A stretch of 64,000 nucleotides of DNA from an uncultured Clostridia bacterium (GTDB taxonomy: Bacteria; Bacillota; Clostridia; TANB77; CAG-508), in assembly GCA_934130355.1 (NCBI GenBank), contig CAKOXV010000005.1, positions 18,690-82,689 on the forward strand. Reading direction: 5' to 3'. Shown piece after piece: positions 4,701-63,540 of the stretch. A program made the position numbers and the translations under genes. The notes under the pieces were generated by a model that had not been told where the DNA came from, did no database searches, and saw only the letters and a program-made list of their open reading frames with translations. Position 1 is the first letter of the stretch, and each line of letters starts with the position of its first letter.

Positions 4701-6809
4701 TTTGACGCATCTGCAAATCATGATGGAAGTATAATGGGGTATTATACAGATGCTGGTGATGGTTTATATGAATTAACATTTATAAGTGATTCAATAATTA
4801 AAGCCAATACAAATGCTTCATATTTATTTCATAATTTAACAGAATTGGAAAAAATCTCATTTGCTAACTTTAGAACTTCAGATGTAACTATTATGACTTC
4901 AATGTTTCAAGGCTGTAGCAAGTTGAAAAATTTGAGTTTAGGTAATTTTGATACAAGTAATGTTACAAGAATGACACTTATGTTTTATAAGTGTAATAAT
5001 CTAGTAAGTTTAGATGTAAGCAGCTTTAATACAAGCAAAGTAGTAGATATGTATGCTATGTTTAATCAATGCAGTAACCTAACAAGCGTAGATGTAAGTA
5101 AATTTGATACAAGTCAAGTAACAAGTATGGGATTTATGTTTGGAGGTTGCCTTAAATTAGAAAGTTTAAATCTAAGTAGTTTTGATACAAGTAAAGTAAC
5201 AAGTATGACCGTTATGTTTAATCAATGCAGTAGTTTAACAAGCTTAGATTTAAAAGGATTTGATACAAGCAAAGTTACTACTATGAGTTATATGTTTGCA
5301 TATTGCACTAAATTATCCACAATTTATGTTGATGACTTTTCTACATCAGCAGTAACTGATGATGCAAATATGTTTAATGCATGTACAAGCCTAGTAGGAG
5401 GAAATGGAACGAGATACAATGCTAGTTATAAGACTAAAACTTATGCAAGGATAGATAAAGCAGGAGAACCAGGATATTTTACCCAAAAGTATAATGAAAC
5501 AGTAATGATGAAAACATCTGGAAGTGATAATAATTCAAATTACTTAAGAGGAGGAATTAAAAAAGTAAATATAGAAAAAATCAAATTTGTAAAAGGAAAG
5601 ACTCAGCCAACTGGAATAATATCAAGTTTTGATGCTTCTGAAAATCAAGATGGAAGTATAATAGGATATTATACAGATATAAATGGAAATGGCTTATATG
5701 AATTAACATTTATGAGTAATTCGACAATAAAAGCAAATGCAGATTCATCATATTTATTTATGTATTTGACAAATTTAAAAGAAATAACATTTGATAACTT
5801 TAAAACAACAGGCACAACTAATATGCTGTATATGTTTTTCTATTGTAGTAATTTAGCAAGTATAGATTTGAGTAATTTTGATACGAGTGAAGTTACAAAT
5901 ATGCAATATTTATTTGGATATTGTAGTAGTTTAGAAAGTTTAGACATAAGTAGTTTTGATACAAGTAAAGTTACAAATATGGGAACAATGTTCCTAGAAT
6001 GTTCAAAATTATCTAAAATTTATGTTGATCAATTTGCAACATCAGCAGTAACCAATTCAGGTGGAATGTTCTATGGATGTACAAATCTAGTAGGAGGAAA
6101 TGGAACAACTTATGATGCTAGTAAAAATGATGCAACTTATGCAAGAATAGACAAGTCTGGAACACCAGGATACTTTACTTTAAAAAACAAGAGTGAAGTA
6201 ATGATGATGGCAACAGAATTAAGCGGAAGTAGTTCTAACTATTTAAGAGGAACAATTATAAGAGGACAAATAGAAAAAGTAAAATTCGTTGAAGGAACAA
6301 CACCACCAACAGGAACAACATCAAGTTTTGATGCTTCAGCAAATCAAGATGGAAGTATAATGGGATATTATACAGATACAGATGGAAATGGTTTGTATGA
6401 ATTGACATTTATGAGTGATGCGATAATTATTTCAAATACAAATGCATCAGGATTATTTATGAATTTTACAAATTTAAAAGAAATAACATTTGATAATTTT
6501 AAAACAACAGGCACAACTAATATGCTGTATATGTTTCTTTATTGTAGTAATTTAACAAGTTTGGACTTAAGTAATTTCGATACAAGTAAAGTTACAAATA
6601 TGCAAACAATGTTTGCAGGATGCTCAAAGCTATCTACGATTTATGTTAAAAACTTTTCAACACTTGAAGTTACTTCTTCTGGAGATATGTTTGGAGGATG
6701 TACAAGCCTAGTAGGAGGAAATGGAACAACATTCAACTCTAGTTATACAGATGCAACATATGCAAGAATAGACAAGTCTGGAACACCAGGATATTTTACA
6801 CAAAAATAA
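1791..6809 (+). CDS. Giant surface protein of 1672 aa. N-terminal signal/anchor and conserved beta-rich domain of about 190 aa, followed by four modules of 26-residue DUF285/TIGR02167 leucine-rich repeats.
   Basis: Repeating '(L)xxLDxSxFDTSxVTxMxxMFxxCxxL' units. Each module ends 'GGNGTxYN..TYARIDKxGxPGYFT'. Signal-like N-terminus 'MRKVKLSRQTLLLFLLLLLIVLMGIGYSAINS'. Confidence 0.85.
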   Translation: MRKVKLSRQTLLLFLLLLLIVLMGIGYSAINSVTGEIDGKVIADIQSGVFIASVEYSNDVNADLDASTIKYYKGTYLQNTVKLSDTDANSSITYKVTIYNNSDDFTTFSGVEYDEEFYDNSDIIFETSGLEKGKTINKKESKDIYITFKYKDGVIPENKILNANLRFKFDWITRMMVANRNDSSATYLRGTITKDKIETINFARGSTISDETISSFDASEKENQTIIGYYTDMDGNGLYELTFMSEGIIAANVDASYLFGDMTNLKQILFDNFSTKGVTNMFKMFGACSELTSLDLTSFNTNQVISMSNMFDSCYKLISIYVKPYNEENNVGWVTSAVTESNQMFNASTNLIGGNGTEFDENNIDVNYARIDTVETPGYLTDISDKPVIMMKGNNASVTPNYLRGTIAKNRIRTISFTRGTTPPEEIIESFDASEKEDKSIMGYYTDAGNSGYNLIFMSESVIAPNVDASYLFCNLNVMNQITFDNFNTNQVIDMSHMFEKCENLKNFDVSKFKTNQLTNMSYMFYYCRGITDLDLSNFNTSQVTNMSYMLYACDGLINFDVSKFNTSNVTDMSHMFELCNKLNNIDVSNFDTSKVTDMNFMFEACKAFTSLDVSNFDTSQVTDMGAMFAWCTNLTNLDLNNFDTSQVTNMRSMFEHCDALTDLNISKFDTSKVTDMSYMFDFCDSLTSLDLSNFDTSQVNDMKVMFRCNSLTNLNISSFDTSNVTDMNSMFNDCSSLTSIDVSNFNTSNVIDMTSMFWGCSSLTSIDVSNFNTSNVTRMIQMFQECTSLTSIDLSNFDTSKVIDMRSLFNGCSKITSINISSFDTSQVTNMWGMFSYCNNLTSIDISSFNTSRVTEMGWMFSKSAKLSQIYVSEFSTLKVTSSDHMFYDCTSLVGGNGTKYNSRYQDKTYARIDKLGEPGYFTELTKVSRMMAGNNSATNYLRGTIAKNEIKTIKFIRGTTQPEGTVSSFDASANHDGSIMGYYTDAGDGLYELTFISDSIIKANTNASYLFHNLTELEKISFANFRTSDVTIMTSMFQGCSKLKNLSLGNFDTSNVTRMTLMFYKCNNLVSLDVSSFNTSKVVDMYAMFNQCSNLTSVDVSKFDTSQVTSMGFMFGGCLKLESLNLSSFDTSKVTSMTVMFNQCSSLTSLDLKGFDTSKVTTMSYMFAYCTKLSTIYVDDFSTSAVTDDANMFNACTSLVGGNGTRYNASYKTKTYARIDKAGEPGYFTQKYNETVMMKTSGSDNNSNYLRGGIKKVNIEKIKFVKGKTQPTGIISSFDASENQDGSIIGYYTDINGNGLYELTFMSNSTIKANADSSYLFMYLTNLKEITFDNFKTTGTTNMLYMFFYCSNLASIDLSNFDTSEVTNMQYLFGYCSSLESLDISSFDTSKVTNMGTMFLECSKLSKIYVDQFATSAVTNSGGMFYGCTNLVGGNGTTYDASKNDATYARIDKSGTPGYFTLKNKSEVMMMATELSGSSSNYLRGTIIRGQIEKVKFVEGTTPPTGTTSSFDASANQDGSIMGYYTDTDGNGLYELTFMSDAIIISNTNASGLFMNFTNLKEITFDNFKTTGTTNMLYMFLYCSNLTSLDLSNFDTSKVTNMQTMFAGCSKLSTIYVKNFSTLEVTSSGDMFGGCTSLVGGNGTTFNSSYTDATYARIDKSGTPGYFTQK

Positions 6810-6817
6810 AACAGAGA

Positions 6818-6860
6818 ATAGAAGTAGAAAACCAAAAAATTCTACTTCTATTTTTTTATC
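6818..6860 (+). terminator. Rho-independent terminator after the first giant repeat gene.
   Basis: Stem GAAGTAGAA...TTCTACTTC followed by a T-run. Confidence 0.7.
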
Positions 6861-6914
6861 CATAATAATACAAAATACTTTTAAATTAACACAAATAAAA
6901 ATTTAATAAACTAC

Positions 6915-6950
6915 TTGAAAAATATGCAAAGAAAATATACAATGTATAAT
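6915..6950 (+). promoter_or_regulatory. Sigma-A-like promoter (TTGAAA-17-TACAAT/TATAAT) upstream of the second giant gene. Homologous to the pth promoter segment at 10575-10610.
   Basis: -35/-10 hexamers. Segment 'tacttgaaaaata(t/c)gcaaa' is duplicated at 10571. Confidence 0.45.
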
Positions 6951-7049
6951 AATAAAATACAAAAATTAGCAATAATTTTTTACAAAATCTTATCCTAAAA
7001 TAGCGAAACATATTGAAGATTAAATATAAAAAATAAACGAGGAAAGGAG

Positions 7050-7091
7050 ATGGTGATATATCTAAAATTAGATATATCATACAAAAGATAG
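7050..7091 (+). other. 13-codon upstream ORF (MVIYLKLDISYKR) with a strong SD. Its stop codon lies 1 nt before the start of the gene at 7093. It contains the 24-bp palindrome GATATATCTAA-AA-TTAGATATATC (7055-7078).
   Basis: GAGGAAAGGAG then ATG at 7050. TAG at 7089-7091, then 'tagtATG'. Perfect 11-bp inverted-repeat arms. Confidence 0.35.
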
Positions 7092-7092
7092 T

Positions 7093-10000
7093 ATGAGAAA
7101 AGTGAAGCTGAGACAAAAAACTTTAATACTATTCCTTTTGCTATTGGTAATAGTATTAATGGGAATAGGATATTCTGCAATAAATTCAATAACAGGCGAA
7201 ATTAAAGGAATTGTAATCGCAAACATACAAGATGGTGTATTTATAGCAAATGTAGAATATGTGAGTAGTGTTAATGCAGATGTAGACAATTCAGCAATTG
7301 AGTATTATAAAGGCACATATTTGCGAAACAAAGCAAAACTATCAGATACAGATGCAAGTTCTTCAATAACATATAAAATAACATTTTATGATAATTCTAA
7401 TAGTTCTTATACATTTGTAGGAGTAGAATATGATGAAGAATTCTATGACAATGTAGACATAATATTTGAAACAAGTAGATTTGACATAGGGCAAGACATA
7501 AACAAGAATGAAACAAAAGAAATGTATATAACATTTAAATACAAAGATGGAGTTCTTCCAGAAAACAAAACTCTAAATGCGAATTTGAACTTCAAATTTG
7601 AAAAAATAAATAGAATGATGGTAGCAGGCAACAATTCTAGTGGAAACTATTTAAGAGGAACAATTGCAAAAGACCAAATAGAAACAATAAGTTTTACAAA
7701 AGGAACTACACCGCCAACAGGAGTAACATCAAGTTTTGATGCTTCTGAAAGTCAAGACAATGGCATAATTGGATATTACACAGATACAGATGGTAATGGA
7801 CTATATGAATTAACATTTATGAGTGAAGGAACAATTTTAGCTAATACAAATAGTTCATATTTGTTTTTCAAGTTGACAAGTTTAAATCAGATAACATTTG
7901 ACAATTTTGATGTAAGTGCTACAAGTAAAGTAACAGACATGAAATATATGTTTTATAGTTGCGGAGGTTTAACTAGTTTGGATGTAAGTAAATTTGATAC
8001 AAGCCAAGTAACAAGTATGAGTTATATGTTTTCTTCTTGCGGTGGTTTAACGAGTTTAGATTTAAGCAATTTTAATACAAGCAAAGTTACAGATGTGGAG
8101 TATATGTTTTATAATTGTAGTAATTTAACAAAGTTAGATGTAAGCAAATTTGACACAAGTCAAGTAACATATATGAGACATATGTTTAATGGTTGCAGTG
8201 GTTTAACCAGTTTAGATGTAAACAACTTTGATACAAGTAAAGTAACAAACATGAGTTATATGTTTTCTTCTTGCAGTGGTTTAACTGATTTAGATGTAAG
8301 CAACTTTAATACAAGTCAAGTAACAGCTATGAATAGTATGTTTGAATCTTGTAGTGGTTTAACCAATTTAGATTTAAGTAACTTTGATACAGGTAAAGTA
8401 ACAGAAATGTATAGTATGTTTGAATCTTGTAGTGGTTTAACCAGTTTAGATGTAAGCAACTTTAATACAAGCAAAGTAACAAATATGAGTGCTATGTTTT
8501 CTTCTTGCAATAGTTTAGCCAGCCTAGATGTAAGCAACTTTGGTACAAGTCAGGTAAGATTTATGAGTACTATGTTTTATGGTTGCAGTAGTTTAACCAA
8601 TTTAGATGTAAGCAACTTTGATACAAGTCAGGTAATGTATATGAGTCATATGTTTACTCAATGCAGTGGCTTAACCAATTTAGATGTAAGCAACTTTAAC
8701 ACAAGTCAAGTAAGAGAGATACAGGATATGTTTAGAGATTGTTTTGGTCTAACCAGTTTAGATTTAAGTAACTTTAACACAGCAGAAGTAACAAATATGA
8801 GTGGTATGTTTGCGAATTGTGTCGGTCTAATCAATTTAGACGTAAGCAGTTTTAACACAAGTAAAGTAACAAGTATGGGTGGTATGTTTGAGGATTGCAT
8901 AAATTTAACAAGTTTAGATTTAAACAGTTTTGACACAGGTCAAGTGAAATATATGAGTGACATGTTTGGGTATTGTAGAAAATTAACAACCATTTATGCT
9001 AAAGATTTTTCAACTTCAAATGTCAGAAATTCCTCAAGTATGTTTAACAAATGTACAAGCCTAGTAGGTGGAAATGGAACGACGTACAATTCTAGTTATA
9101 CAGATGCAACATATGCAAGAATAGACATAGAAGGAACACCAGGATATTTTACGAGACTAACAAGAATGATGGTTGCAAGCTACAGTTTTGATGGAAACCA
9201 TTTAAGAGGAACAATTGCAAAAGATAAAATAGAAAAAATAGTTTTTACCAAAGGCTCTACAGCTCCAACAGGAGCAATATCAAGTTTTGATGCTTCTGAA
9301 AATGAAGATAAAAGTATAATAGGATACTATACAGATACAGACGGAAATGATTTATATGAATTAACATTTATGAGTGAAAGCACAATTTTGGCTAATACAA
9401 ATAGTTCGTATTTGTTTTACGGTTTAAAGAGTTTAAAACAGATAACATTTGACAATTTTAATGTAAGTAATGTAAGCAAGGTAACAGATATGATAAATAT
9501 GTTTACTGGTTGTATTAGTTTAACCAGTTTAGATGTAAGTAAATTTGATACTAGCCAAGTAACAAGTATGAGTTCTATGTTTTATGGGTGTAGTGGATTA
9601 ACGAGTTTGGATGTAAGCAAGTTTGATACAAGTCAAGTAACAAGTATGAGTTCTATGTTTTATGGGTGTAGTGGATTAACGAGTTTGGATGTGAGCAAGT
9701 TTGATACAAGTCAAGTAACAAGTATGAGTTCTATGTTTTATAATTGCAGTGGTTTGACGAGTCTAGATGTAAGCAGCTTTGATACAAGTCAAGTAACATT
9801 AATGGATAGTATGTTTTCTAATTGCAGTAGCTTAACAAGTTTAGATGTAAGCAAATTTGACACAAGTAAAGTAACAGATATGAGTTATATGTTTTTTTAT
9901 TGCAGTAAATTAACAAATTTAGATGTAAGCAAATTTGACACAAGCAAAGTGACGGATATGATGCGTATGTTTTATAATTGCAGTGGTTTGACGAGTTTAG

Positions 10001-10479
10001 ATGTAAGCAAATTTGATACAAGCCAAGTGACAGATATGAGTCATATGTTTTATAATTGCAAAGGTTTAACCGGTTTAGATGTGAGCAATTTTGACACAAG
10101 CAAAGTAACAGGTATGAGGGATATGTTTTCTGGTTGCAAAGGTTTAACCAGTTTAGATGTAAGTAACTTTGATACTAGCCAAGTAACAAATATGATGCAG
10201 ATGTTTACTAATTGCAGTGGCTTAACGAGTTTAGATGTAAGCAAATTTGATACAAGTAAAGTAACAAATATGATGAATATGTTTTTTGGTTGCAGTAAAT
10301 TAACAACAATTTATGTTAAAGATTTTTCAACTTCAAATGTTACAGAGTCTTCGAACATGTTCTATGGTTGCACAAGCCTAGTAGGAGGAAATGGAACTAC
10401 GTACAATTCTAGTTATAAAGATGCAACATATGCAAGAATAGACACAGCTGGAACACCAGGATATTTTACACAAAAATAA
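7093..10479 (+). CDS. Second giant surface protein (1128 aa), paralogue of 1791..6809. The N-terminal domain of about 190 aa is conserved; two modules of 26-residue DUF285 repeats follow.
   Basis: About 85% nt identity to the paralogue over the N-terminus. Same repeat consensus and same C-terminal 'GGNGTTYNSSY.DATYARID..GTPGYFTQK'. Confidence 0.85.
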   Translation: MRKVKLRQKTLILFLLLLVIVLMGIGYSAINSITGEIKGIVIANIQDGVFIANVEYVSSVNADVDNSAIEYYKGTYLRNKAKLSDTDASSSITYKITFYDNSNSSYTFVGVEYDEEFYDNVDIIFETSRFDIGQDINKNETKEMYITFKYKDGVLPENKTLNANLNFKFEKINRMMVAGNNSSGNYLRGTIAKDQIETISFTKGTTPPTGVTSSFDASESQDNGIIGYYTDTDGNGLYELTFMSEGTILANTNSSYLFFKLTSLNQITFDNFDVSATSKVTDMKYMFYSCGGLTSLDVSKFDTSQVTSMSYMFSSCGGLTSLDLSNFNTSKVTDVEYMFYNCSNLTKLDVSKFDTSQVTYMRHMFNGCSGLTSLDVNNFDTSKVTNMSYMFSSCSGLTDLDVSNFNTSQVTAMNSMFESCSGLTNLDLSNFDTGKVTEMYSMFESCSGLTSLDVSNFNTSKVTNMSAMFSSCNSLASLDVSNFGTSQVRFMSTMFYGCSSLTNLDVSNFDTSQVMYMSHMFTQCSGLTNLDVSNFNTSQVREIQDMFRDCFGLTSLDLSNFNTAEVTNMSGMFANCVGLINLDVSSFNTSKVTSMGGMFEDCINLTSLDLNSFDTGQVKYMSDMFGYCRKLTTIYAKDFSTSNVRNSSSMFNKCTSLVGGNGTTYNSSYTDATYARIDIEGTPGYFTRLTRMMVASYSFDGNHLRGTIAKDKIEKIVFTKGSTAPTGAISSFDASENEDKSIIGYYTDTDGNDLYELTFMSESTILANTNSSYLFYGLKSLKQITFDNFNVSNVSKVTDMINMFTGCISLTSLDVSKFDTSQVTSMSSMFYGCSGLTSLDVSKFDTSQVTSMSSMFYGCSGLTSLDVSKFDTSQVTSMSSMFYNCSGLTSLDVSSFDTSQVTLMDSMFSNCSSLTSLDVSKFDTSKVTDMSYMFFYCSKLTNLDVSKFDTSKVTDMMRMFYNCSGLTSLDVSKFDTSQVTDMSHMFYNCKGLTGLDVSNFDTSKVTGMRDMFSGCKGLTSLDVSNFDTSQVTNMMQMFTNCSGLTSLDVSKFDTSKVTNMMNMFFGCSKLTTIYVKDFSTSNVTESSNMFYGCTSLVGGNGTTYNSSYKDATYARIDTAGTPGYFTQK
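9532..9765 (+). repeat. Three near-identical tandem 78-bp (26-codon) repeats inside the second giant gene.
   Basis: 'DVSKFDTSQVTSMSSMFYGCSGLTSL' is encoded three times with 1-3 nt differences. Confidence 0.85.
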
Positions 10480-12397: not shown

Positions 12398-12534
12398 CGC
12401 TAAAATGGGGACGGTCCTTTTCTTCGCGAATTTGGGGACAGACCTTTAAAATTATTTGAAAATATTATATAAACAAATTAAAAGGTCTGTCCCCAAATTC
12501 GCGAAGAAAAGGACCGTCCCCATTTTAGCTAGCG
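12398..12534. repeat. GC-rich perfect palindrome with arms of about 49 bp (arm sequence 'gctaaaatggggacggtccttttcttcgcgaatttggggacagaccttt') and a loop of about 33 nt. Member of a genomic repeat family.
   Basis: Left arm 12399-12447 is the exact reverse complement of right arm 12481-12529. Contains GGGGACGGTCC / GGGGACAGACC / TTCGCGAA sub-palindromes. A related copy lies at 63491-63540. Confidence 0.85.
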
Positions 12535-12546
12535 AGAGGTGAAAAA

Positions 12547-13905
12547 ATGAAAGTAGGATTTATATCACTAGGATGTAGTAAAAATTTAATAGACACAGAA
12601 ATAGCAATAGGGCATTTCAAAAACAACAAATATGAAATAGAAAATAATCCAGAAAAAGCAGAAATAATAGTAATAAACACATGTGGATTTATAGAATCAG
12701 CAAAAGAAGAAGCAATAAACACAATACTAGAAATGGCTGAGTATAAAAAGAAAAAATGCAAATATCTAATAGTAATGGGATGTTTAGTACAACGTTATTA
12801 TGACGAACTAATAAAAGAACTTCCAGAAGTAGACTTATTCATAAAAATTGATGAATATAACAATATGTGGCAAAAAATAGAAAAACTAATTAAGAAAGAC
12901 GAAGTAGAGATAAGCACAACACATACAAGCAAAAAAATAACAGAAATAAAGCCACTTCCAATGCCAACAGCAAATGAATTTTATGAAAGAATTATAACAA
13001 CAGGAAAAAACTTTGCATATTTAAAAATAGGAGAAGGATGTAGCAATAGATGTACATATTGTGCAATTCCATACATAAGAGGTCCATTTGTAAGTAGACC
13101 ACAAGAAGAAATAATAGAAGAAGCAAAAACACTTGCAAAAAAAGGAATAAAAGAATTAATAATAATTGCACAAGACACAACAAAATATGGAGTAGACATT
13201 TATGGAGAGCCAAGACTAGCAAAACTATTAGAAGAATTAAGCAAAATTCCAGAAATAAAATGGATTAGATTTTTATATTCTTATCCAGAAGGAATAACAG
13301 ATGAACTAATTCAAACTGTTAAAAACAATGAAAAAATCTGCAAATATTTTGACATACCAATTCAACACATTTCAGATAAAATCCTAAAAAAGATGAATAG
13401 AAGAACAAACAAAAAACAAATAGAAAACTTAATAAATAAATTAAGAAAAGAAATACCTGATGTAACATTAAGAACAAGTTTGATAGTAGGATTTCCAGGA
13501 GAAACTGTTGAAGATTTTGAAGAATTAGAAGAATTTGTACAACAAGCCAAATTTGACAAATTAGGTGCATTCATGTATTCAAAAGAAGAAGGAACACCAG
13601 CTGCTAAGATGACAGGACAAATACATGCAAACACTAAAAAGGCAAGATACAATAAAATAATGGCAATTCAGCAAAAAACTTCAAACGAAAAATTACAAGA
13701 AAAAATAGGAAAAGAATTTGAAGTTTTAGTTGAAGACAAAACTTTTGATGGAAAATATTTAATAGGAAGAACTAAACAAGATGTTCCAGACATTGATGGA
13801 CTTATATACATAAAAAATGAGACAACAGAGCAATTAATAGACAAATTTGTAAAAGCAAAAGTCATAGAAGTAAAAGATTATGACTTAATAGGAGAGATTT
13901 GTTAA
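12547..13905 (+). CDS. rimO: Ribosomal protein S12 methylthiotransferase RimO (MiaB-family radical SAM with TRAM domain).
   Basis: 'VGFISLGCSKNLIDTE' N-terminal MTTase domain, 'CSNRCTYCAIP' radical-SAM Cys motif, C-terminal TRAM domain. Confidence 0.75.
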   Translation: MKVGFISLGCSKNLIDTEIAIGHFKNNKYEIENNPEKAEIIVINTCGFIESAKEEAINTILEMAEYKKKKCKYLIVMGCLVQRYYDELIKELPEVDLFIKIDEYNNMWQKIEKLIKKDEVEISTTHTSKKITEIKPLPMPTANEFYERIITTGKNFAYLKIGEGCSNRCTYCAIPYIRGPFVSRPQEEIIEEAKTLAKKGIKELIIIAQDTTKYGVDIYGEPRLAKLLEELSKIPEIKWIRFLYSYPEGITDELIQTVKNNEKICKYFDIPIQHISDKILKKMNRRTNKKQIENLINKLRKEIPDVTLRTSLIVGFPGETVEDFEELEEFVQQAKFDKLGAFMYSKEEGTPAAKMTGQIHANTKKARYNKIMAIQQKTSNEKLQEKIGKEFEVLVEDKTFDGKYLIGRTKQDVPDIDGLIYIKNETTEQLIDKFVKAKVIEVKDYDLIGEIC

Positions 13906-33235: not shown

Positions 33236-35344
33236 ATGTTTTATGCAAAGATAACAAAAATAATGCTTTTTCTATTTATAATATTTGGAGTAATAATACT
33301 TTTTGATAATCCAGTTACAGCCCAAAGTAATTACACAGCCAGAACGTGGATTGATAGCCCCAAAAGTGAAGATATATCTTTTGAAAAAATGGTTGTATCT
33401 GGTTGGAAACTAAGTAATGACAAAGATTCTAAACTAAAAATATTAATAGATGACAAAGAACAGAAGATAGAAAACTTAACAACTAGAAGTAGAGCAGATG
33501 TAATAAGTACTATACCGGGATATGGCGGAATAGAACTAAACCCAGAACCAGGATATTCAGCAACAATAGATATCTCAGGAATTAAAAGAGGATATCACAC
33601 ATTAAAAACACAAATAATATCTGCTGAAGGAAAAATATTAACAGAACAAAGTAGAAAAATATACATAGAATCATATAAAGCCAGAACATATATAGACAGT
33701 CCCAAACAAAATGCAAATATAGAAGGAACAAAATTAGTTGTACAAGGATGGATAATGTCTGATGATTTATCTAGAGATGTAAAAATATTTTTAGACGACA
33801 AAGAACAGCAAATTACACAAACAACTACAAGAACTAGACCAGATGTAATAAGTGCTGTACCAGGATATGGTGGAATTAATAAAAATCCGGAACCAGGATA
33901 TTCATCAACAATAGATGTATCAAAAATAAAAAGTGGAAAATATAAATTAAAAGTACAAGTCATATCAAGAAATGGTGAAATATTGACTGAACAAACAAGA
34001 GATATATTTATTGAAAATTATAGAGCAAGAACTTATATAGATTCTCCAAAACAAGAAGCGGTTATAGAAGGGGCAAGTTTGGCTGTACAAGGATGGTATA
34101 TGAGTAGTGAAAAAACTAAAAATTTAAGAATATTAATAGATGGTCAAGAACATGAAATTATTCAAACTACAACAAGACCAAGACCTGATGTAATATCAGC
34201 AGTACCAGGTTATGGAGGTATCGAAACAAATCCAGAACCAGGATATTCAGCAACAATAGATATCTTAAAAATCAAAGATGGAAAACACAATTTAAAAGTA
34301 CAAATTTTATCAAGTGATAATGAAGTAATGGCAGAAGATGAAAGACAAATAATAGTCCAAAAATATAAAGCAAAAACATATATAGATTATCCCAAAGGAA
34401 ATAGTCAAACAAAAGATACTTTAACAGTATCAGGATGGGTAATGTCAACAGATGCAAATAGAAAAATAAATATTTACTTAAATGGAGAAAAACAAATAAT
34501 AAATAATATTACGACAAGGCCAAGACCTGATGTAATATCAGCTGTTCCAAGTTATGGAGGAATTGATACAAATGCTCAACCAGGATATTCAACAACAATT
34601 GATGTTTCCAACAAAGAGGATGGGAAATATACATTGAAAGTTCAAATCGTTTCAAGCACAGGAGAAGTTTTAACTGAAGATACAAGACAAATCTATATAC
34701 ATATAAATTATGAATTTGGCATAGATGTCTCAACACACAATGGAACAATAGATTGGGGAAAAGTAAAGCAAAGTGGAGTAAAATTTGCAATAATAAGAGC
34801 AGGATTTAGAGGCTATGGAAAAGCTGGAACATTAGTACAAGATGCAAAATTTGTGGAAAATATGAAAGGTGCTATATCTAATGGAATTGATGTTGGAATA
34901 TATTTTTATTCACAAGCAATAAATACTCAAGAAGCTATTGAAGAAGTTGAAATGATATTAAAATTGATAAGAGAAAATGGATTTTCAAAGAGTATTGCAT
35001 TACCAATAATAATAGATACAGAAGAATCATCAGGAAGAGCTGACCAAATATCAATAGATCAGAGAACAAAGGCTGTAAAGGCATTTTGTGACAGGGTAGA
35101 ACAAGCAGGTTATAAATCAATGATATATTCTAATAAATATTGGCTTTCTGCTAAGCTAAATATGAATGAATTGTCTCAATATGATTTTTGGCTAGCACAT
35201 TATACTGGCACAAATGACCCAATAAATAATCCGTCTGATTACAAGGGGAGTTATCAAATTTGGCAATATAGTTCAACAGGTAGAGTTGATGGAATTAATG
35301 GAAATGTGGACTTAAATATTAAATATAAGAAGTATTCTTTCTAA
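33236..35344 (+). CDS. Secreted GH25 muramidase (lysozyme) with five N-terminal GW-containing repeats of about 110 aa each.
   Basis: Signal peptide. Five copies of 'ARTYIDSPK...V.GW.MS...RPDVISAVPGYGG...NPEPGYS.TID'. C-terminal 'FGIDVSTHNGTIDWGKVK...GIDVGIYFYS' GH25 motifs. Confidence 0.8.
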   Translation: MFYAKITKIMLFLFIIFGVIILFDNPVTAQSNYTARTWIDSPKSEDISFEKMVVSGWKLSNDKDSKLKILIDDKEQKIENLTTRSRADVISTIPGYGGIELNPEPGYSATIDISGIKRGYHTLKTQIISAEGKILTEQSRKIYIESYKARTYIDSPKQNANIEGTKLVVQGWIMSDDLSRDVKIFLDDKEQQITQTTTRTRPDVISAVPGYGGINKNPEPGYSSTIDVSKIKSGKYKLKVQVISRNGEILTEQTRDIFIENYRARTYIDSPKQEAVIEGASLAVQGWYMSSEKTKNLRILIDGQEHEIIQTTTRPRPDVISAVPGYGGIETNPEPGYSATIDILKIKDGKHNLKVQILSSDNEVMAEDERQIIVQKYKAKTYIDYPKGNSQTKDTLTVSGWVMSTDANRKINIYLNGEKQIINNITTRPRPDVISAVPSYGGIDTNAQPGYSTTIDVSNKEDGKYTLKVQIVSSTGEVLTEDTRQIYIHINYEFGIDVSTHNGTIDWGKVKQSGVKFAIIRAGFRGYGKAGTLVQDAKFVENMKGAISNGIDVGIYFYSQAINTQEAIEEVEMILKLIRENGFSKSIALPIIIDTEESSGRADQISIDQRTKAVKAFCDRVEQAGYKSMIYSNKYWLSAKLNMNELSQYDFWLAHYTGTNDPINNPSDYKGSYQIWQYSSTGRVDGINGNVDLNIKYKKYSF

Positions 35345-35376: not shown

Positions 35377-35400
35377 CTATTAAAATTAATTCATATATTT

Positions 35401-35476
35401 TGCTGTATATATATTAAAAATAATGGAAAGTTTAGCTTGTCCAAAATTTGGAATGTTTTTTAATATATATACAGCA
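35401..35476. repeat. Perfect 20-bp-stem hairpin (TGCTGTATATATATTAAAAA / TTTTTAATATATATACAGCA) enclosing a 36-nt loop with the conserved motif 'GAAAGTTTAGCTTGTCCAAAATTTGGAATG'. Probably a deletion derivative of the element family at 59753-60088.
   Basis: The motif plus 'TTTTTAATATATATAC' is identical to 60010-60055. The left arm interior 'TATATATTAAA(AA)TAATGGA' matches 59786-59808. Confidence 0.75.
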
Positions 35477-35546
35477 AATATATTGAATTTATTTAACTTT
35501 AATGATAAAATTCAAAAAGAATAAATATAAAATAGGAGGAATAGAC

Positions 35547-37647: not shown

Positions 37648-39876
37648 ATGAAAAAAACAACAAAAATATTATTTTTTATTTTAATATTAATATCTTTCAT
37701 AATGTTAATAAAAGTTCCTAGAAGTGTTGCAGCAACTGCAAAAACAAAGATATGGTTCGACTATCCAAAACAAGGAACAGAATATAAAAAAGAATTAAAT
37801 ATACATGGATGGGTTATGTCAGAATTAGCAGAAAAAACAGTAAAAATATATATTGATGATAAAGACATAACATCACAAATAAAATTATATAATAGACCAG
37901 ATGTAACCAAAACTGTAAAAGGATTTGGAACGGCAGAACAAAATCCACTTGCAGGATTTGATGGAACAATAGATATATCTGGATATAAAGACGGAAGTCA
38001 TAAAGTAACTGTAAAAGTATTAGAAAATGCAACACAAAATGTAATTCAAGAAAACACAAGCATAATACAAATTAAAAAATATCAAACAAAAATATTTTTT
38101 GATTATCCAAAACAATCTGAAACAGTATTTAAAACAATAAATGTGCATGGATGGGTAATGTCAGAAGCAGAAAATAAAACAGTTCAAATATTTTTAGATG
38201 ATACAGATATAACAAAACAAATAAAAAGATATGCAAGACCAGATGTAATAAAAGCAGTAAAAAATTATGGTACAGAAAAACAAAATCCACAATCAGGATT
38301 TGACGGAAATGTAGATATTTCTAAACTTACAGTTGGAAAACATGCTGTAAAAATGAAAGTAATAAATAATGATACATCAGAGACAATAGCAGAAGAAACA
38401 AGAAAAATTAATGTAAGAGATTATTATACAAAAATATGGTTTGATTATCCAAAACAAAACAATGAATATAAAGCTTCACTAAATGTACATGGATGGATAA
38501 TGTCAGAACAAGCAGACAAAATTGTAAAATTCTATATTGATAATAATGATGTAACAGAACAAATAAAAAGATATGCAAGACCAGATGTAACAGGAACTGT
38601 AAAAGGATTCGGAACAGCAGAACAAAATACACTTGCAGGATTTGACGGAACAATAGATATGTCAAAATATAAAGATGGTAAACATAGTGTAACAATAAAA
38701 GTATTAGAAAAAACAACAGAAAGAGAAATTTCTCAAAGCACTACTACATTTACAATACATAAATATGCAACAAAATTACATGTAGATTATCCACATCAAC
38801 AACAAAACAGTAAAAATGTTTTAAAAATACATGGATGGGTTATGTCAGAACAAGCAGATAAAAGTATGAAATTTTATTTGAATAATGAAGATATAACATC
38901 ACAAATAAAATTATATGATAGACCAGATGTAATAAAAGCAATTAAAAATTATGGAACAGCAGCACAAAATCCAACAGCAGGATATGATGGACAAATTGAT
39001 GTAGAAAAATTAACTGCTGGAAATTATACTTTAAAAATACAAGTAATATCAAATGTTACAAAAGAAGTATTAGAAACAGCACGAGTTCAAATAACATTAA
39101 ACAAAATACTTTTAGAAAAAGGTGTTTATGGAAAATCAGGTCTAGCAATAAAAGGTGATTATAGAGGAAGTGACCTTATATATTACAAAATAGGTGACGG
39201 AGAAAATGTATTATTTACAACATTTTCAGTACATGGATATGAAGATGAATGGGATCAAGATGGTGCAGAATTAACAAAAATAGCAGAACAATTTAAAAAT
39301 AAATTAATACAATTACAAGATAGAGAATTAGACAAAAAATGGACAATCTATATTTTCCCAATGGTTAATCCAGATGGACAAAAATATGGAACAACACATA
39401 ATGGACCAGGAAGAACAACATTATATAGTGCTGCACCAGGTCACAAGGGTGTAGATATGAACCGTTGTTGGAGTTCAAATTTTGAAGAAAAAACAAATAA
39501 TAGAAATTATACAGGACCAGAACCATTTTTAGCTTATGAAGCAAGATATTTAAGAGACTTTTTACTAAAAAATAAATCAAAAACAGGTCAAACAATACTT
39601 GTAGATTTACATGGATGGTATAATCAATCAATAGGTGATGAAGCTGTAGGAAAATATTATAGAGAACAATTAGGAATTACAAAACCACATAAAAGCACTT
39701 ATGGAACTGGATATTTAGTTGGATGGGCAAAAGATAATTTAGGAAACAAAAATTATTCTGCTAAATCAGAACTAATAGAATTAGTACCAGTAGAAAACCA
39801 AGAAGAAGTTGCTTCAAGAAGATATGGAGAAAAATACATAACAGCAACAATAAATATGTTAAAAGGAATTCTATAA
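37648..39876 (+). CDS. Secreted M14-family zinc carboxypeptidase-like cell-wall peptidase with four N-terminal repeats of the GW-containing type also found in the GH25 enzyme.
   Basis: Signal peptide. Four copies of 'KIWFDYPKQ...HGWVMSE...RPDV.K.VK.(F/Y)GT..QNP..G(F/Y)DG.ID'. C-terminus 'HGYEDEWD...PMVNPDG...GVDMNRCW' (M14 Zn-ligand and 'NRxW' motifs). Confidence 0.7.
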   Translation: MKKTTKILFFILILISFIMLIKVPRSVAATAKTKIWFDYPKQGTEYKKELNIHGWVMSELAEKTVKIYIDDKDITSQIKLYNRPDVTKTVKGFGTAEQNPLAGFDGTIDISGYKDGSHKVTVKVLENATQNVIQENTSIIQIKKYQTKIFFDYPKQSETVFKTINVHGWVMSEAENKTVQIFLDDTDITKQIKRYARPDVIKAVKNYGTEKQNPQSGFDGNVDISKLTVGKHAVKMKVINNDTSETIAEETRKINVRDYYTKIWFDYPKQNNEYKASLNVHGWIMSEQADKIVKFYIDNNDVTEQIKRYARPDVTGTVKGFGTAEQNTLAGFDGTIDMSKYKDGKHSVTIKVLEKTTEREISQSTTTFTIHKYATKLHVDYPHQQQNSKNVLKIHGWVMSEQADKSMKFYLNNEDITSQIKLYDRPDVIKAIKNYGTAAQNPTAGYDGQIDVEKLTAGNYTLKIQVISNVTKEVLETARVQITLNKILLEKGVYGKSGLAIKGDYRGSDLIYYKIGDGENVLFTTFSVHGYEDEWDQDGAELTKIAEQFKNKLIQLQDRELDKKWTIYIFPMVNPDGQKYGTTHNGPGRTTLYSAAPGHKGVDMNRCWSSNFEEKTNNRNYTGPEPFLAYEARYLRDFLLKNKSKTGQTILVDLHGWYNQSIGDEAVGKYYREQLGITKPHKSTYGTGYLVGWAKDNLGNKNYSAKSELIELVPVENQEEVASRRYGEKYITATINMLKGIL

Positions 39877-49134: not shown

Positions 49135-49172
49135 TCCTCTTTTTCTTTTTAATACTCAAAGAGCCACACTTT

Positions 49173-49521
49173 CTTGGTACTTGCAGGCATGACTCTCAGG
49201 TATATAGTGCACCAAAAGTACCAAAAATGCATTACAGATTTTGGATAAGCCAATCTTCCCACAGAAGTTCTAATTTAATAAAAAAAGCCGCTTTCACTTA
49301 GCTAAAAATTAATATTAACTATGAAGTAAAGCAAAGACCCCCGACGAAGACCCCAGCTATGTTTTTGCTACGGAATAGTTAATATTAATTTTTATCGTGA
49401 ACATCCCTCTTTTTATTAAATAAGAACTTCTAGTGTTAAGATTAGATACACAAAATCTTTCATTTATTTTCGGTACTTTTGGTGCACTATATACCAGGGA
49501 CTTATGTCTGCAAGTACCAAG
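49173..49521 (+). repeat. Approximately 350-bp structured element (copy A). Long imperfect outer stem (38 bp with an internal bubble), nested inner helices, and a conserved core of about 110 nt (49303-49410) that itself carries a 19-bp inverted repeat.
   Basis: Outer arms 49173-49222 / 49472-49521. Core is 'aaaaattaatattaactatgaagtaaagcaaagaccc..gaccccagctatgtttttgctacggaatagttaatattaattttt'. A homologous copy in the opposite orientation lies at 59753-60088. Confidence 0.8.
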
Positions 49522-49650
49522 AAAATATGGCTTAGGTTGTGTTACAATATTACAGAATTATTAAAACTATATTACAATTTCATTAAAACACTTGACAATA
49601 GACAAAAAAAGAATAAAATATTAGTATAAAAGAAAGGCTGAAAAAGCAAT

Positions 49651-58221: not shown

Positions 58222-58250
58222 AAGTATGCTTTTGCATACTTTTTATTTTT
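58222..58250. terminator. Bidirectional terminator between the GH15 gene (+) and murC (-).
   Basis: Stem AAAGTATGC-tttt-GCATACTTT with T-runs on both sides. Confidence 0.65.
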
Positions 58251-59634
58251 GGGTTAACATTGGACCAATATCAGTAACTGTACCAGCTCCAAGAGTTAAA
58301 ACAATATCATCTTTTTGAACATGGTCTTTTATATAAGAAGCACAACCTTCAAGAGAAGGAATATAAATTGCATCTTTTCCTAATTTTGTAATTGCATCAG
58401 CCAAATCTTTAGAAGAAATATTATAAGTGTTAGTTTCTCTTGCTGCATAAATATCAGTAACAATAATATTATCAAAAGAAAGTAAAGCTTTAGCAAAATC
58501 ATCTAAAAGATTAAATGTTCTACTATATGTATGTGGTTGAAAAATAACCCATGATTTATTATAAGTTTTATTTTTTAAAGCTTTAGCAGTAGCAATTACT
58601 TCTGTTGGATGATGACCATAATCATCATATACTTTAGCACCATTAACAATTCCTTTATATTGGAATCTACGTTCAGCTCCAGTAAATTTTTCTAAAGCAG
58701 TTTTCATGCAATCAACAGAAATTCCATAACTATCACATAATGAAATACAAGCTAATGCATTTAAAACATTGTGTCTACCAGGAATTGAAAGTTTAAAATG
58801 TCCGAAAAGTTCATTATTTTTATAACAATCAAACTCTGGAAAACCATTTTCGTCAAAAGCAATATTTTTTGCACAATAATCGACATCTTTATTTTCTATA
58901 CCATATTTAATAACAGGTGCTTTAGAATGTTCAGGTAAAATTAAACAATTTGCATCATCTGCATTTATAATAAGATGACCATCTTTTGGCAAAAGCTCAA
59001 CATATTTTATAAAAGCTTTTTTGATATTTTCAATATTTTTGTAATAGTCTAAATGATCATTATCAATATTTAAAATAATTTCACTTCTTGGACTGAATTT
59101 TAAAAAGCTTTCAACATATTCACAAGCTTCAATTATAAAGTTTTCACTATTTCCAACTCTATAATTTCCACCAAGTTCTTTAATAATTGCTCCAACTTGA
59201 ATACTAGGATCTCTAAGAGCTTCTATAAAACATAAAGATACAAGTGAAGTTGTTGTAGTTTTTCCATGTGTTCCAGAAATTGCAATAGTATTTTTATAAC
59301 ATCTTGTAAGTTCACCTAAAAAGTCTGAACGTTCAATAACTGGAATTCCAAGTTCTTTTGCACGAACAAGTTCAGGATTATCTTGTTTTATAGCAGCTGT
59401 ATAAACTACACAGTCAGCACCTTCAACATTTTTTGCATTATGTCCGACAAAAGTTTTAATATTTGCTTTATTTAATATATGTAAAATTTCTGAATCAACA
59501 TTATTACTTCCTGAAACTTCAAAACCCCAATTAACAAGGATTTCAGCAATTCCACTCATACTTATACCGCCGATTCCAATCATAAAGATTTTTTTGTATT
59601 TCTTAATATTTTTAATATTAGGCATTATAAACAC
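58243..59634 (-). CDS. murC: UDP-N-acetylmuramate--L-alanine ligase.
   Basis: 'IGIGGISMSG' at the N-terminus. 'GTHGKTTTTS' P-loop. Full-length Mur ligase. Confidence 0.9.
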   Translation of the reverse strand: MFIMPNIKNIKKYKKIFMIGIGGISMSGIAEILVNWGFEVSGSNNVDSEILHILNKANIKTFVGHNAKNVEGADCVVYTAAIKQDNPELVRAKELGIPVIERSDFLGELTRCYKNTIAISGTHGKTTTTSLVSLCFIEALRDPSIQVGAIIKELGGNYRVGNSENFIIEACEYVESFLKFSPRSEIILNIDNDHLDYYKNIENIKKAFIKYVELLPKDGHLIINADDANCLILPEHSKAPVIKYGIENKDVDYCAKNIAFDENGFPEFDCYKNNELFGHFKLSIPGRHNVLNALACISLCDSYGISVDCMKTALEKFTGAERRFQYKGIVNGAKVYDDYGHHPTEVIATAKALKNKTYNKSWVIFQPHTYSRTFNLLDDFAKALLSFDNIIVTDIYAARETNTYNISSKDLADAITKLGKDAIYIPSLEGCASYIKDHVQKDDIVLTLGAGTVTDIGPMLTQK

Positions 59635-59752
59635 TCCTTAAATTTATTTGGCAATAAATTAACATTTTTTATTATATACTTATATAATGCAAATTTCAAG
59701 GCTTTTGTTACAAAAAATATGGAACTAATAATAGTTTTAATACACACCTCGA

Positions 59753-60088
59753 CACAAATGGCTTCATGGCACCACTGGAACTAGGTATATATATTAAATA
59801 ATGGATAATTTTGTGCATCTAAACTTGAGGATAGAAAATCTTAAAGTACATACACGAGGAATGCTCACGTCAAAAATTAATATATTACTATTCCATGGCA
59901 AAAACATAGCTGGGGTCATCCCCATAGTGGGTCTTTGCCTTATTTCATAGTAATATATTAATTTTTGGACTAAGAGAGAGAGGCTCGTGTTGTACTTTTA
60001 GATTTTATATGAAAGTTTAGCTTGTCCAAAATTTGGAATGTTTTTAATATATATACCTGGTTACAGTGGTGCCATGAAACCATTTGTG
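59753..60088 (-). repeat. Approximately 340-bp structured element (copy B, opposite orientation). 40-bp terminal inverted repeats, nested helices, and the same core of about 110 nt as copy A.
   Basis: Arms 'cacaaatggcttcatggcaccactggaactaggtatatat' / reverse complement at 60049-60088. The core's reverse complement 'aaaaattaatatattactatgaaataaggcaaagaccc..gaccccagctatgtttttgccatggaatagtaatatattaatttttg' is about 85% identical to 49303-49410. Confidence 0.8.
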
Positions 60089-60256
60089 TCAAGGTATGCA
60101 TTAGAACTATTAATTAGCAACATAAATTTAAAATAAAAAAATATTAAAAAATTTGTAAAAAAAGAGGGAAAAAAATTAGAATAGGAGAATAATATACATA
60201 GTACATAAGAATACACGTATATGTACAAATTTAAAATAACAGTGGAGGTGCACACA

Positions 60257-60529
60257 ATGCAAATAACAGACGTACGTTTAAGAAAAGTAAATTCAGAGAA
60301 CAGAATGAAAGCTGTTGCTTCTGTAACATTCGATAATGAATTTGTTATCCATGATATCAAAGTTATCGAAAGTCAAAATGGATTATTCATTGCTATGCCA
60401 AGCAGAAAAACTCCAAACGGAGAATTCAAAGACATAGCTCATCCAATCAATGCTGAAACAAGAGAGAAAGTTCAAAAAGCTATATTAGAAGCTTATGACG
60501 CTCCTGAAACAGAAGAATCAGCAGAATAA
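60257..60529 (+). CDS. spoVG: Septation protein SpoVG.
   Basis: '[38 protein letters not shown]' matches SpoVG almost in full. RBS GGAGGTG. Confidence 0.9.
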
Positions 60530-62208: not shown

Positions 62209-62881
62209 AATCTATTCAAGAAAAAGGTTTATAATCAAAAGAAAAAGGAAGATAATCAAAATTACACTAACACTAGTCATAGCTGTAATTATATATAAAA
62301 TAACAATTGGTTTCGTTGGTCCTGTTTTTGAAACATTATGTGAAGAAAAAGTAAGAATAATATCAACAATAATTTCAAATCAGGAGTCAACGAAAATCAT
62401 GAATAAATATCAATATGAAGAATTATATACAATTGAAAAAGATGAGGTCGGAGATGTAACAATTATAAAATCAAATGTAGTTCCTATAAATAATATGATT
62501 TCTGATCTAACTGAAGCAATTCAAAATAGATTTAATGAAGTTGAAAATACTGAAATTAAAATCACTTTGGGAAATTTATTAGGAGGGTATTATTTCTCAG
62601 GAATTGGACCTTCTATACCTATTAAAGTACGAAGCTCTGGAACAATTGATACAGAAATAAAAAGTGAGTTTATAGCACAAGGCATAAATCAAACATTACA
62701 TAGAGTCTATGTGAATTTTGAGTGTTATTTTAAGGTTATAACACCTGTTAAAAATTTTGAGAAAAAGGTTACTAATCAGGTTATAATTGCAGAACATGTT
62801 ATTGTTGGAAATATTCCAGATGCCTACTATAATCTTGAGGGAGTGAATAGCACTGGGGATATGTTGAATTCGATTAAATAA
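62201..62881 (+). CDS. yunB: Sporulation protein YunB family.
   Basis: N-terminal TM and conserved YunB core ('ITLGNLLGGYYFSGIGPSIPIK...'). Confidence 0.65.
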   Translation: MSKIYSRKRFIIKRKRKIIKITLTLVIAVIIYKITIGFVGPVFETLCEEKVRIISTIISNQESTKIMNKYQYEELYTIEKDEVGDVTIIKSNVVPINNMISDLTEAIQNRFNEVENTEIKITLGNLLGGYYFSGIGPSIPIKVRSSGTIDTEIKSEFIAQGINQTLHRVYVNFECYFKVITPVKNFEKKVTNQVIIAEHVIVGNIPDAYYNLEGVNSTGDMLNSIK

Positions 62882-62886
62882 TCTAA

Positions 62887-62920
62887 AAGAGAAGTACAAT
62901 GTGCACTTCTCTTTTTAAAC
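62887..62920 (+). terminator. Rho-independent terminator.
   Basis: Stem GAGAAGT...ACTTCTC followed by TTTTT. Confidence 0.6.
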
Positions 62921-63003
62921 TATTAAACAACTTCAATATACCCTCTTGTATAAAAAAAAATACTTTGATATAATTTAAACATAATAGCAAAGGAGGAGAT
63001 AAA

Positions 63004-63483
63004 ATGGAAGAACAATGCAAGTGCGGATGTAGCGGAAAAGACGAATTTTTAGAAGGTTTATGTGAAAAATATAAGCCAATAAAAGACAATTTAATACAAA
63101 TGTTAAACGAAGTACAAGAACATTATGGATATGTACCAATGAAAGCTCAAAAAGTTTTATCAGAATATTTAAATTTACCAATGGCAGAGATATATGGTGT
63201 AGTAACATTTTATTCAAGATTTACACTAAAACCAAAAGGAAAATACAACATAGCAGTATGTTTAGGAACAGCATGTTATGTAAAAGGTTCACAAAAAATA
63301 ATGGACAGATTAAAAGATAGATTAAAAATAGAACCAGGAGAAACAACGCCAGACGGAAAATTTTCAATAGAAGAAACCAGATGTGTTGGAGCATGCGGAT
63401 TAGCTCCTGTATTTACAGTAAATGGAAAAGTATATGGAAAAGCAACAGTGCAAATGTTAGACCAAGTCTTAGATGAGCTATAA
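63004..63483 (+). CDS. NuoE-family [2Fe-2S] subunit (24-kDa type) of an NADH-dependent hydrogenase or dehydrogenase.
   Basis: 'CLGTACYVKGS...CVGACGLAPV' thioredoxin-like 2Fe-2S motif. Confidence 0.8.
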   Translation: MEEQCKCGCSGKDEFLEGLCEKYKPIKDNLIQMLNEVQEHYGYVPMKAQKVLSEYLNLPMAEIYGVVTFYSRFTLKPKGKYNIAVCLGTACYVKGSQKIMDRLKDRLKIEPGETTPDGKFSIEETRCVGACGLAPVFTVNGKVYGKATVQMLDQVLDEL

Positions 63484-63490
63484 ATGTAAA

Positions 63491-63540
63491 AAAAAGGACC
63501 GTCCCCAAATTCGCGAAAAAAAGGACCGTCCCCAAATTAA
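63491..63540. repeat. Two tandem copies of the GC-rich unit 'GGACCGTCCCCAAATT(CGCGAA)', equivalent to half of the 12398-12534 palindrome.
   Basis: Units at 63496-63517 and 63523-63538. Identical to the right arm of the 12.4-kb palindrome. Confidence 0.8.

Follow-up and report, generated by a model that had tools for sequence, protein, structure and literature searches.

A Palindrome Between murC and spoVG in an Uncultured Gut Clostridia Genome Is Probably a Three-Layer Interspersed Hairpin Repeat Reshaped by Template Switching

1. The murC–spoVG Spacer and Copy B

The window, i.e., the whole 64-kb stretch of DNA that was analysed, carries the divergently transcribed genes murC and spoVG. In the spacer between them, the initial annotation placed a structured element at 59753–60088, referred to here as copy B. 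The features of the locus are as follows; M denotes the middle layer of the element, and percentages given for its arms are identities to the corresponding arms of copy A and of locus L053.

58243–59625, minus strand: murC, start codon ATG at 59625, product of 460 aa; the identical protein carries Pfam Mur_ligase domains
59626–60256: murC–spoVG spacer, 631 nt
59671–59699, minus strand: murC σA-type promoter-like site, TTGAAA-17-TATAAT, 11/12 matches to consensus; 30 nt outside the left end of copy B
59729–59796: outer left arm, 85% pairing with 60041–60112; locus-specific
59797–59871, plus strand: M left arm (AATAATGGATAATTTTGTGCATC…CTCACGTC), 70% to copy A, 74% to L053
59872–59966, plus strand: central hairpin of about 92 nt, the apex unit, with stem AAATTAATATATTACTAT and conserved tip GGCAAAAACATAGCTGGGGTCATCCCCATAGTGGGTCTTTGCC at 59896–59940
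59967–60040, plus strand: M right arm, ending in the motif GAAAGTTTAGCTTGTCCAAAATTTGGAATG of the initial annotation, 68% to copy A, 71% to L053
60041–60112: outer right arm, pairing with 59729–59796
60163–60190, plus strand: spoVG promoter-like site, AGAGGGAAA-12-GGAGAAT, found by direct reading and presumed σH-like; 51 nt outside the right end of copy B
60257–60529, plus strand: spoVG, 90 aa; PF04026 on the identical protein

Copy B is an imperfect palindrome of 384 bp, extending from 59729 to 60112, that is, 24 nt beyond the coordinates first given at both ends. Its outermost inverted-repeat arms, 59729–59798 and 60043–60112, are 70 nt long, 90% complementary, and separated by 244 nt. On folding, a 391-nt stretch over copy B forms a single long imperfect hairpin on either strand (plus strand, −176.3 kcal/mol, z = −18.0; minus strand, −183.7 kcal/mol, z = −22.9), and on neither strand did any of 100 shuffles fold as well. 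A structured element is thus indeed present and, with 61% of the 631 nt, it does fill most of the spacer. That it is an insertion relative to related species also holds, as the spacer measures only 286–294 bp in L001, L002, and L006.

Both predicted promoters lie outside the element. The murC σA-type site is conserved in sequence in L002–L010, whether the insert is present or absent. The spoVG site, which we take to be σH-like from the B. subtilis consensus, recurs with its spacing in L002 and other relatives. Both motifs are also kept in relatives that do not carry the element, as is the AT-rich tract that precedes the spoVG motif. Inside the element, a σ70-type scan predicts no outward-facing promoter and picks up two weak, mirror-image, inward-facing sites (9/12). 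The proposal that the element reshapes spoVG and/or murC regulation is unsupported by this arrangement; rather, copy B appears, from the sequence comparison, to be tolerated where it lies, between two divergent promoters. Other lineages carry other repeats in this spacer. For example, L003 and L009 (spacer 360 bp) have three tandem copies of a GGGGTCGGTTCC-type REP and L006 (294 bp) has one, a REP copy number that varies from strain to strain.

2. Three Nested Layers

The apex unit is the innermost layer. In copy B it scores 97.3 bits (E = 5 × 10−19) with R1, a covariance model built from apex-unit copies with an exact tip. The conserved tip is about 37 nt long, GCAAAAACATAGCTGGGG…GGGTCTTTGC, also written GGCAAAAACATAGCTGGGG…GGGTCTTTGCC. 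The pattern ATAGCTGGGG-N(3–14)-GGGTCTTTGC occurs twice in the window, against 0.00 occurrences expected from shuffles. Between copies A and B, the central unit of 90–95 nt is 84% identical and the middle arms 68–70%.

The M arms behave differently from a simple inverted repeat. Copy A and L053 share 88% identity in the left arm and 81% in the right, yet the two arms of one copy are only 66–70% complementary; in copy B, the figure is 66%. As each arm is conserved and the two pair poorly, M is best described as a repeat with two distinct, imperfectly inverted ends, in the manner of a MITE. These ends (…ATGAAAGATTTTG and CAAAATCTGTAATG…) recur in conserved form in A, B, C, and L053. Direct reading of the copies revealed no conserved ORF in M or in the element. 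A micro-ORF or small toxin, MKDFVYLILTLEVLI, was considered and set aside: it encodes 15–16 aa in copy A and L053, no ribosome-binding site precedes it, and copy B does not conserve it.

The outer arms show the opposite pattern. Those of A, B, and L053 are 82–85% self-complementary within each copy, whereas identity between copies is about 45–53%, i.e., they are unrelated. By inspection, their G+C content is above that of the AT-rich spacers. Inverted copying of the local flank would not obviously explain them, and it was rejected as their source, the arms having no similarity to the spacer of element-free relatives.

The layers are separable. The apex unit stands alone at L055, 13022–13116, with the same stem as in copy B. 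M is found without the apex unit in another species (L053, L058, and L060), where the tip is a small hairpin, GGCAAACTTATAAGTTTGAGCC. In L053 this unit-less tip, at about 3190–3215, reads GGCAAAC-TTATAA-GTTTGAGCC; it resembles both the closing helix of the apex unit (GGCAAA…TTTGCC) and the helix of REPs that flank RAYT genes (GGGCAA…TTTGCCC), a likeness that may stem from common descent or a shared target. The conservation of the tip and of the asymmetric internal loops of M across species suggests that some constraint acts on them.

3. Other Copies in the Window and in Related Genomes

The window holds four loci of the family. Besides copy B, these are:

23099–23194, plus strand: copy D, lying between era and recO; an apex unit on its own, diverged in sequence (R1 score 45.2 bits, E = 5 × 10−7)
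35383–35494, plus strand: copy C, an M remnant between the GH25 muramidase and GT2 genes, with both M ends kept, the centre lost, and outer arms of its own
49162–49532, minus strand: copy A, the M plus apex-unit composite between divIVA and an rsmD-like gene, with outer arms of its own (82 nt, 85% complementary)

Copy A thus lies in opposite orientation to copy B, in agreement with the description of copy B as an inverted copy of the same element. The 45-nt motif at the spoVG-proximal end of copy B was said to recur near 35421; the match is 35/35 at 35426–35460 and, on direct reading, lengthens to 45/46 with a single T indel. This motif is the end of the M layer, and the site near 35421 is an internally deleted copy of M.

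Uncultured gut Clostridia yielded about 20 intergenic copies of the apex unit. A scan with an 18-mer of the tip, run against one genome per species, found 15 exact intergenic copies in six MAGs of uncultured Clostridium/Clostridia, of which five are of human gut origin and one comes from sheep jejunum, with four extra matches in unrelated phyla attributable to chance. Most of the 18-mer copies are the bare hairpin of about 90 nt. R1 added the unit at 23099–23194, a second unit in a conspecific contig (L005/L055), and one in L038. Of the seven tip matches in JGI metagenomes, those in L036 and L038 are genuine and five, in unrelated high-GC contigs, are chance. All family copies sit between housekeeping genes. 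Distant blastn with the 384 bp found no match in plasmid and phage collections, the tip 18-mer and the M motif had none among IMG/VR viral contigs, and a protein query based on a 49-aa ORF that happens to span M and the unit yielded no further copies. A keyword search of the literature turned up no publication on this repeat. We conclude that it is a previously undescribed family of an uncultured gut Clostridium/Clostridia clade.

Two variants of the unit deserve description. In the sole tandem case seen, L021/L026 (CALXUT010000016.1), two apex units separated by about 80 nt share one stem arm. In L017, L019, L027, L028, and L036, which come from the sheep jejunum Clostridia MAG and one metagenome contig, the element is about 190 nt long. 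In this variant GTCTTTGCC, the helix partner of GGCAAAAAC, is located 5′ of GGCAAAAAC with a TTCG loop, not 3′ of the tip, a rearrangement of the conserved tip that resembles a circular permutation. Beyond its ends, TTACAATTCACAGC…GCTGTGAATTGTAA, each locus has perfect palindromic extensions of its own.

The window also contains repeats of other kinds. Two very large ORFs at 1791–10479 (1672 and 1128 aa) consist of about 40 copies of a 78-nt (26-aa) repeat that looks BspA-type leucine-rich. Tandem repeats of 342–345 nt are found at 33395–34698, within the GH25 muramidase gene (33236–35344), and at 37744–39069, within an M14 carboxypeptidase gene (37648–39876). Both proteins match Big_7, a bacterial Ig domain, and the repeats are probably Ig-like domains.

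4. DNA Palindrome or Structured RNA

The stems of the apex unit vary between copies and still pair, in 97% of pair cells. Compensatory double changes occupy 45 cells and affect 15 of the 25 pairs; none of 500 shuffles reached the observed values. Such strong covariation, together with the tip kept across species and the asymmetric internal loops of M retained between copies, is what would be seen if the element were a structured non-coding RNA or cis-acting RNA, the apex unit or M being transcribed into a hairpin that might, for instance, stabilise mRNA 3′ ends, be cleaved by RNase III, or bind a protein. The placement of the units fits this reading too. Most oriented units start 11–97 nt past the upstream stop codon, and, relative to co-directional neighbour genes, 15 of 18 have GCAAAAAC… on the sense strand and three on the antisense strand. 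Firmicutes genes tend to follow the direction of replication. The orientation bias could reflect an RNA effect, selection on orientation, or equally a replication-strand bias of insertion.

The character of the pairing argues against an RNA. G-U pairs make up only 3 of 298 pair cells (1%) in the unit alignment, and the pairing is Watson–Crick on both strands. The long copies have 4–8 G-U pairs out of about 150, and which strand is the more stable varies among A, B, and L053. That is, neither the G-U rate nor the strand stability of A, B, and L053 shows an RNA-type strand asymmetry. With G-U pairs so few and no strand consistently better, complementarity is kept on both DNA strands, which selection at the RNA level does not require. 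The apex unit does covary as an RNA should, but a DNA palindrome would give the same outcome.

Other observations likewise tell against transcription into a functional RNA. Stems as long as about 190 bp set the element apart from known bacterial RNAs, and the orientation of the element differs between strains (Section 5). Copy B is upstream of both flanking promoters, and its internal promoter-like sites are weak and face inward. No Rfam family matches: at the gathering threshold the whole window yields tRNA only, and at E ≤ 10 the segment 59600–60260 yields generic AT-rich hairpin matches only, among which lactis-plasmid ranks highest with 29.7 bits (cut-off 70). We regard an RNA identity as quite unlikely. 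A DNA repeat, kept complementary on both strands, is the preferred reading.

5. Strain Variation and Inversion

The same loci in other metagenomes were retrieved by exact-protein look-up; the comparisons below are between metagenome assemblies, not reads. Copy B is identical in four contigs (L030–L033). In L005, the flanks of which are 100% identical, M is inverted; the apex unit keeps the chromosomal orientation seen in the window and hence is flipped relative to M. One outer arm and an M end are missing from this copy, with the junction at an AACT microhomology, and there is an extra insert of 38 nt.

Copy A is likewise variable. In L044, the inner segment of about 200 nt is inverted (the GAAGTTCT level), both crossovers falling within the 9-bp inverted repeat AGAAGTTCT. 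L044 also has a clustered change, CTCAGG to CCCTGG, as a result of which the arm now matches its partner. In L047, everything inside the perfect 24-bp repeat GGTATATAGTGCACCAAAAGTACC is inverted (the AAAGTACC level). In L042, both outer arms are gone, and the deletions, at TTTT and GTGTTA microhomologies, also remove 9 and 30 nt of the conserved M ends. We considered L042 as the ancestral arm-less state; the loss of conserved M-end nucleotides rules this out and marks it as a deletion derivative. In the species with unit-less M, M is inverted between L053/L058 and L060, which align at 98.4% in reverse. Taken together, inversions occur across strains at three nesting levels. Of the ten contigs encoding an identical DivIVA protein, five end inside copy A (L045, L047, L048, L049, and L050). 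Given that the exact inverted repeats are no longer than 24 bp, well under typical assembly k-mers, the inversions are unlikely to be a trivial assembler ambiguity, as judged from the assembled sequences.

An unrelated hairpin element is present in the murC–spoVG spacer of another species, at about 2640–2840 in L004 and about 2645–2845 in L008. It is bounded by TTGCAATTCA…TGAATTGCAA and contains the inner repeat AATTAATAATATATTGTTTT; its non-palindromic centre of about 100 nt is inverted between the two contigs.

Segments flanked by inverted repeats and present in both orientations among close strains recall invertons, such as the RecV-dependent switches of Clostridioides difficile and the invertible promoters of Bacteroides. 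Copy B might be such a phase-variable switch, in which a site-specific recombinase flips M and/or the apex unit and thereby alters expression of spoVG, murC, or neighbouring genes. Near-identical strains do differ by inversions at every locus examined, and the separate L004/L008 hairpin shows one as well. Contigs also break within the element, which a mixture of both orientations in one sample would be expected to cause. One crossover maps inside 9 bp of identity, which is short for homologous recombination; a site-specific enzyme would also fit. Unlike in an inverton, however, the crossovers fall at three nesting levels in locus-specific arms, with no common recombination site apparent, and no recombinase was found in the 64-kb window, of which 30 proteins were scanned, or near the loci of relatives. 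Neither an outward-facing promoter of σ70 type nor an orientation-dependent terminator was found in the invertible part, and each gene has a conserved predicted promoter of its own that lies outside the element. Moreover, the segment is nearly palindromic, so flipping alters little sequence. We therefore consider a programmed switch at copy B unlikely.

The preferred explanation of the inversions, exchange between the arms of a DNA palindrome, has precedents. According to three reports, template switching between imperfect inverted repeats causes arm homogenisation, inversion of the spacer, and repeat expansion (PMC8604942, PMC13100816, PMC8794818). It would explain the complementary arms of our element, the inversion of enclosed segments, and possibly arm growth. 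Template switching is favoured as the mechanism since both the inversions and the arm-improving clustered change match these published outcomes. It is a mutational process, not an element family, and leaves the conserved tip, the spread to multiple loci, and the G+C-rich unique outer arms unexplained. As to the losses in L005 and L042, microhomology-flanked deletion of long palindromes is familiar in bacteria.

6. The RAYT Lead

All related species examined carry a single-copy RAYT-type Y1 transposase gene (PF01797; 257–263 aa) with yunB on one side and a 2Fe-2S thioredoxin-like gene on the other. Its orientation varies, and one homologue is named RayT by JGI. In at least seven related species the gene is flanked by REPs of the GGGGACGGTTC, GGGACCGGTTCT, or GGGGTCGGTTCC type. 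The survey of this site covered loci L051–L054 and L056–L069; the equivalent site in the window, 62881–63004, has no gene. Here the conspecific L055 has an insert of about 465 nt that includes an apex unit. L055 also has, after yunB, an extra segment of about 190 nt (about 12650–12900) that is missing from the window and encodes a 28-aa ORF, MTSFDLIWRLIVLLLNTYNEKKPDSDKD, with GGAGG upstream.

The window itself contains REPs, AATGGGGACGGTCCTTTT and ATTTGGGGACAGACC, that match the RAYT-flanking REPs of relatives, at 12399–12529 and 63493–63539. The first site, between an RNase E/G-family gene and a radical-SAM gene (UPF0004/TRAM-domain), is an inverted doublet pair that forms a hairpin with 59-nt arms.

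These findings raise the possibility that the apex unit is of REP/REPIN type and was spread by a RAYT (Y1/HUH) transposase acting on single-stranded DNA hairpins. The RAYT genes occupy a conserved site and are flanked by REPs (e.g., GGGCAATTTGGGGTCGGTTCCATTTTTGCCC), which the tip, GGCAAA-…TGGGGTCTTCC…-TTTGCC, loosely resembles, and strand-specific single-strand transposition would be expected to produce the orientation bias of the units. The resemblance between tip and REP is short, however, and without statistical support, and REPs of the flanking type (GGGGACGGTTC) form a separate family in the window, at the two sites just given. With R1, no apex unit was found beside RAYT genes (9 loci plus 9 loci examined), and with tblastn no RAYT was found in the window or in the apex-bearing loci examined. 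A link between RAYT and the apex unit is thus unsupported by the R1 and tblastn searches of RAYT loci in relatives and homologues, which revealed no association, and we rate spread by RAYT as very doubtful.

7. Comparison with Known Systems

An interspersed hairpin repeat of DNA remains the reading we prefer, and the nearest known systems are REPs and MITEs. Like the REPs and REPINs of Proteobacteria, the apex units are short, intergenic, non-coding, multi-copy hairpins that vary between strains; REPs, too, often form inverted doublets that give longer hairpins (PMC3116915, PMC5581495, PMC3733652). They also differ from REPs, which conserve their stem and a tag, GTAG or CGTC (PMC3733652), whereas in the apex unit the tip is conserved, the stems vary, and there is no terminal GTAG or CGTC. 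The apex unit is about 92 nt long, as against 20–40 nt for REPs. REPs flank a single-copy RAYT gene; apex units flank none of those examined.

M is closer to MITEs and other hairpin repeats, such as Correia/NEMIS, ERIC/IRU, RUP, and BOX (PMC3184786), in that it has two conserved, imperfectly inverted ends and is non-coding, multi-copy, and intergenic. It shows the terminal inverted repeats, the several copies, and the absence of coding sequence by which MITEs are recognised. Nesting of repeats, as seen here, is also known for MITEs. In contrast to MITEs, neither a target-site duplication nor a parent insertion sequence was found for M, and every copy of M is enclosed by long locus-specific inverted arms that classical MITEs do not have.

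8. Origin of the Element

No direct repeats or target-site duplications were found at the flanks of the copies; the flanks are inverted repeats. The difference between L055 and the window is a complex indel of about 465 nt, not a clean empty/filled pair. No recombinase or transposase is present among the 30 window proteins scanned or among the annotated genes around A and B, and a related autonomous insertion sequence was found neither in the window and the neighbourhoods of A and B nor in the plasmid, phage, and viral collections. In view of the failure to find a target-site duplication, a cognate transposase, or a clean empty/filled pair, the mobility of the repeat is deduced from its distribution only.

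We suggest the following course of events. The hairpin unit would have inserted into the tip of M, and the M plus unit composite would then have been copied to at least two loci, A and B. Template switching during replication, or recombination, between the arms may maintain their complementarity and, in doing so, flip the segment that they enclose. The same arm-to-arm process, along with slippage, may also erode the palindrome. Copy B, positioned between two divergent promoters, would be tolerated there and dispensable for both genes.

A more elaborate scheme would make the hairpin layers a new kind of mobile DNA that inserts into the tips of other hairpins and exists as flip and flop isomers in rapid interconversion. 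The tip and the M loops would be sites for a hairpin-binding enzyme, and the inversions would be programmed, phase-variable events that affect neighbouring genes or produce long hairpin RNAs, not a side effect of replication. This we find improbable. In our judgement, copy B is most likely a non-coding, three-layer DNA quasi-palindrome, a MITE/REP-like interspersed hairpin repeat reshaped by arm-to-arm template switching. It is probably selfish repeat DNA rather than a regulator, and probably neither a structured RNA nor a dedicated switch.

9. Significance

For the biology of spoVG and murC, the element is probably of little import, as the predicted promoters are intact and close relatives do without it. 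Its consequences for sequence analysis are more tangible. The element breaks gut metagenome assemblies, as in the five of ten contigs that stop in copy A. Its inversion polymorphisms would likely be called phase-variable by inverton finders that rely on inverted repeats, although no promoter or recombinase appears to be involved. Similarly, a conserved tip on covarying, variable stems could mislead RNA-motif discovery that is based on covariation only.

The host belongs to the abundant uncultured gut Clostridia, in which this repeat family has been unreported. The strain evidence from these bacteria is consistent with template switching as a process that shapes long bacterial palindromes, accompanied by microhomology-flanked deletion of their arms.
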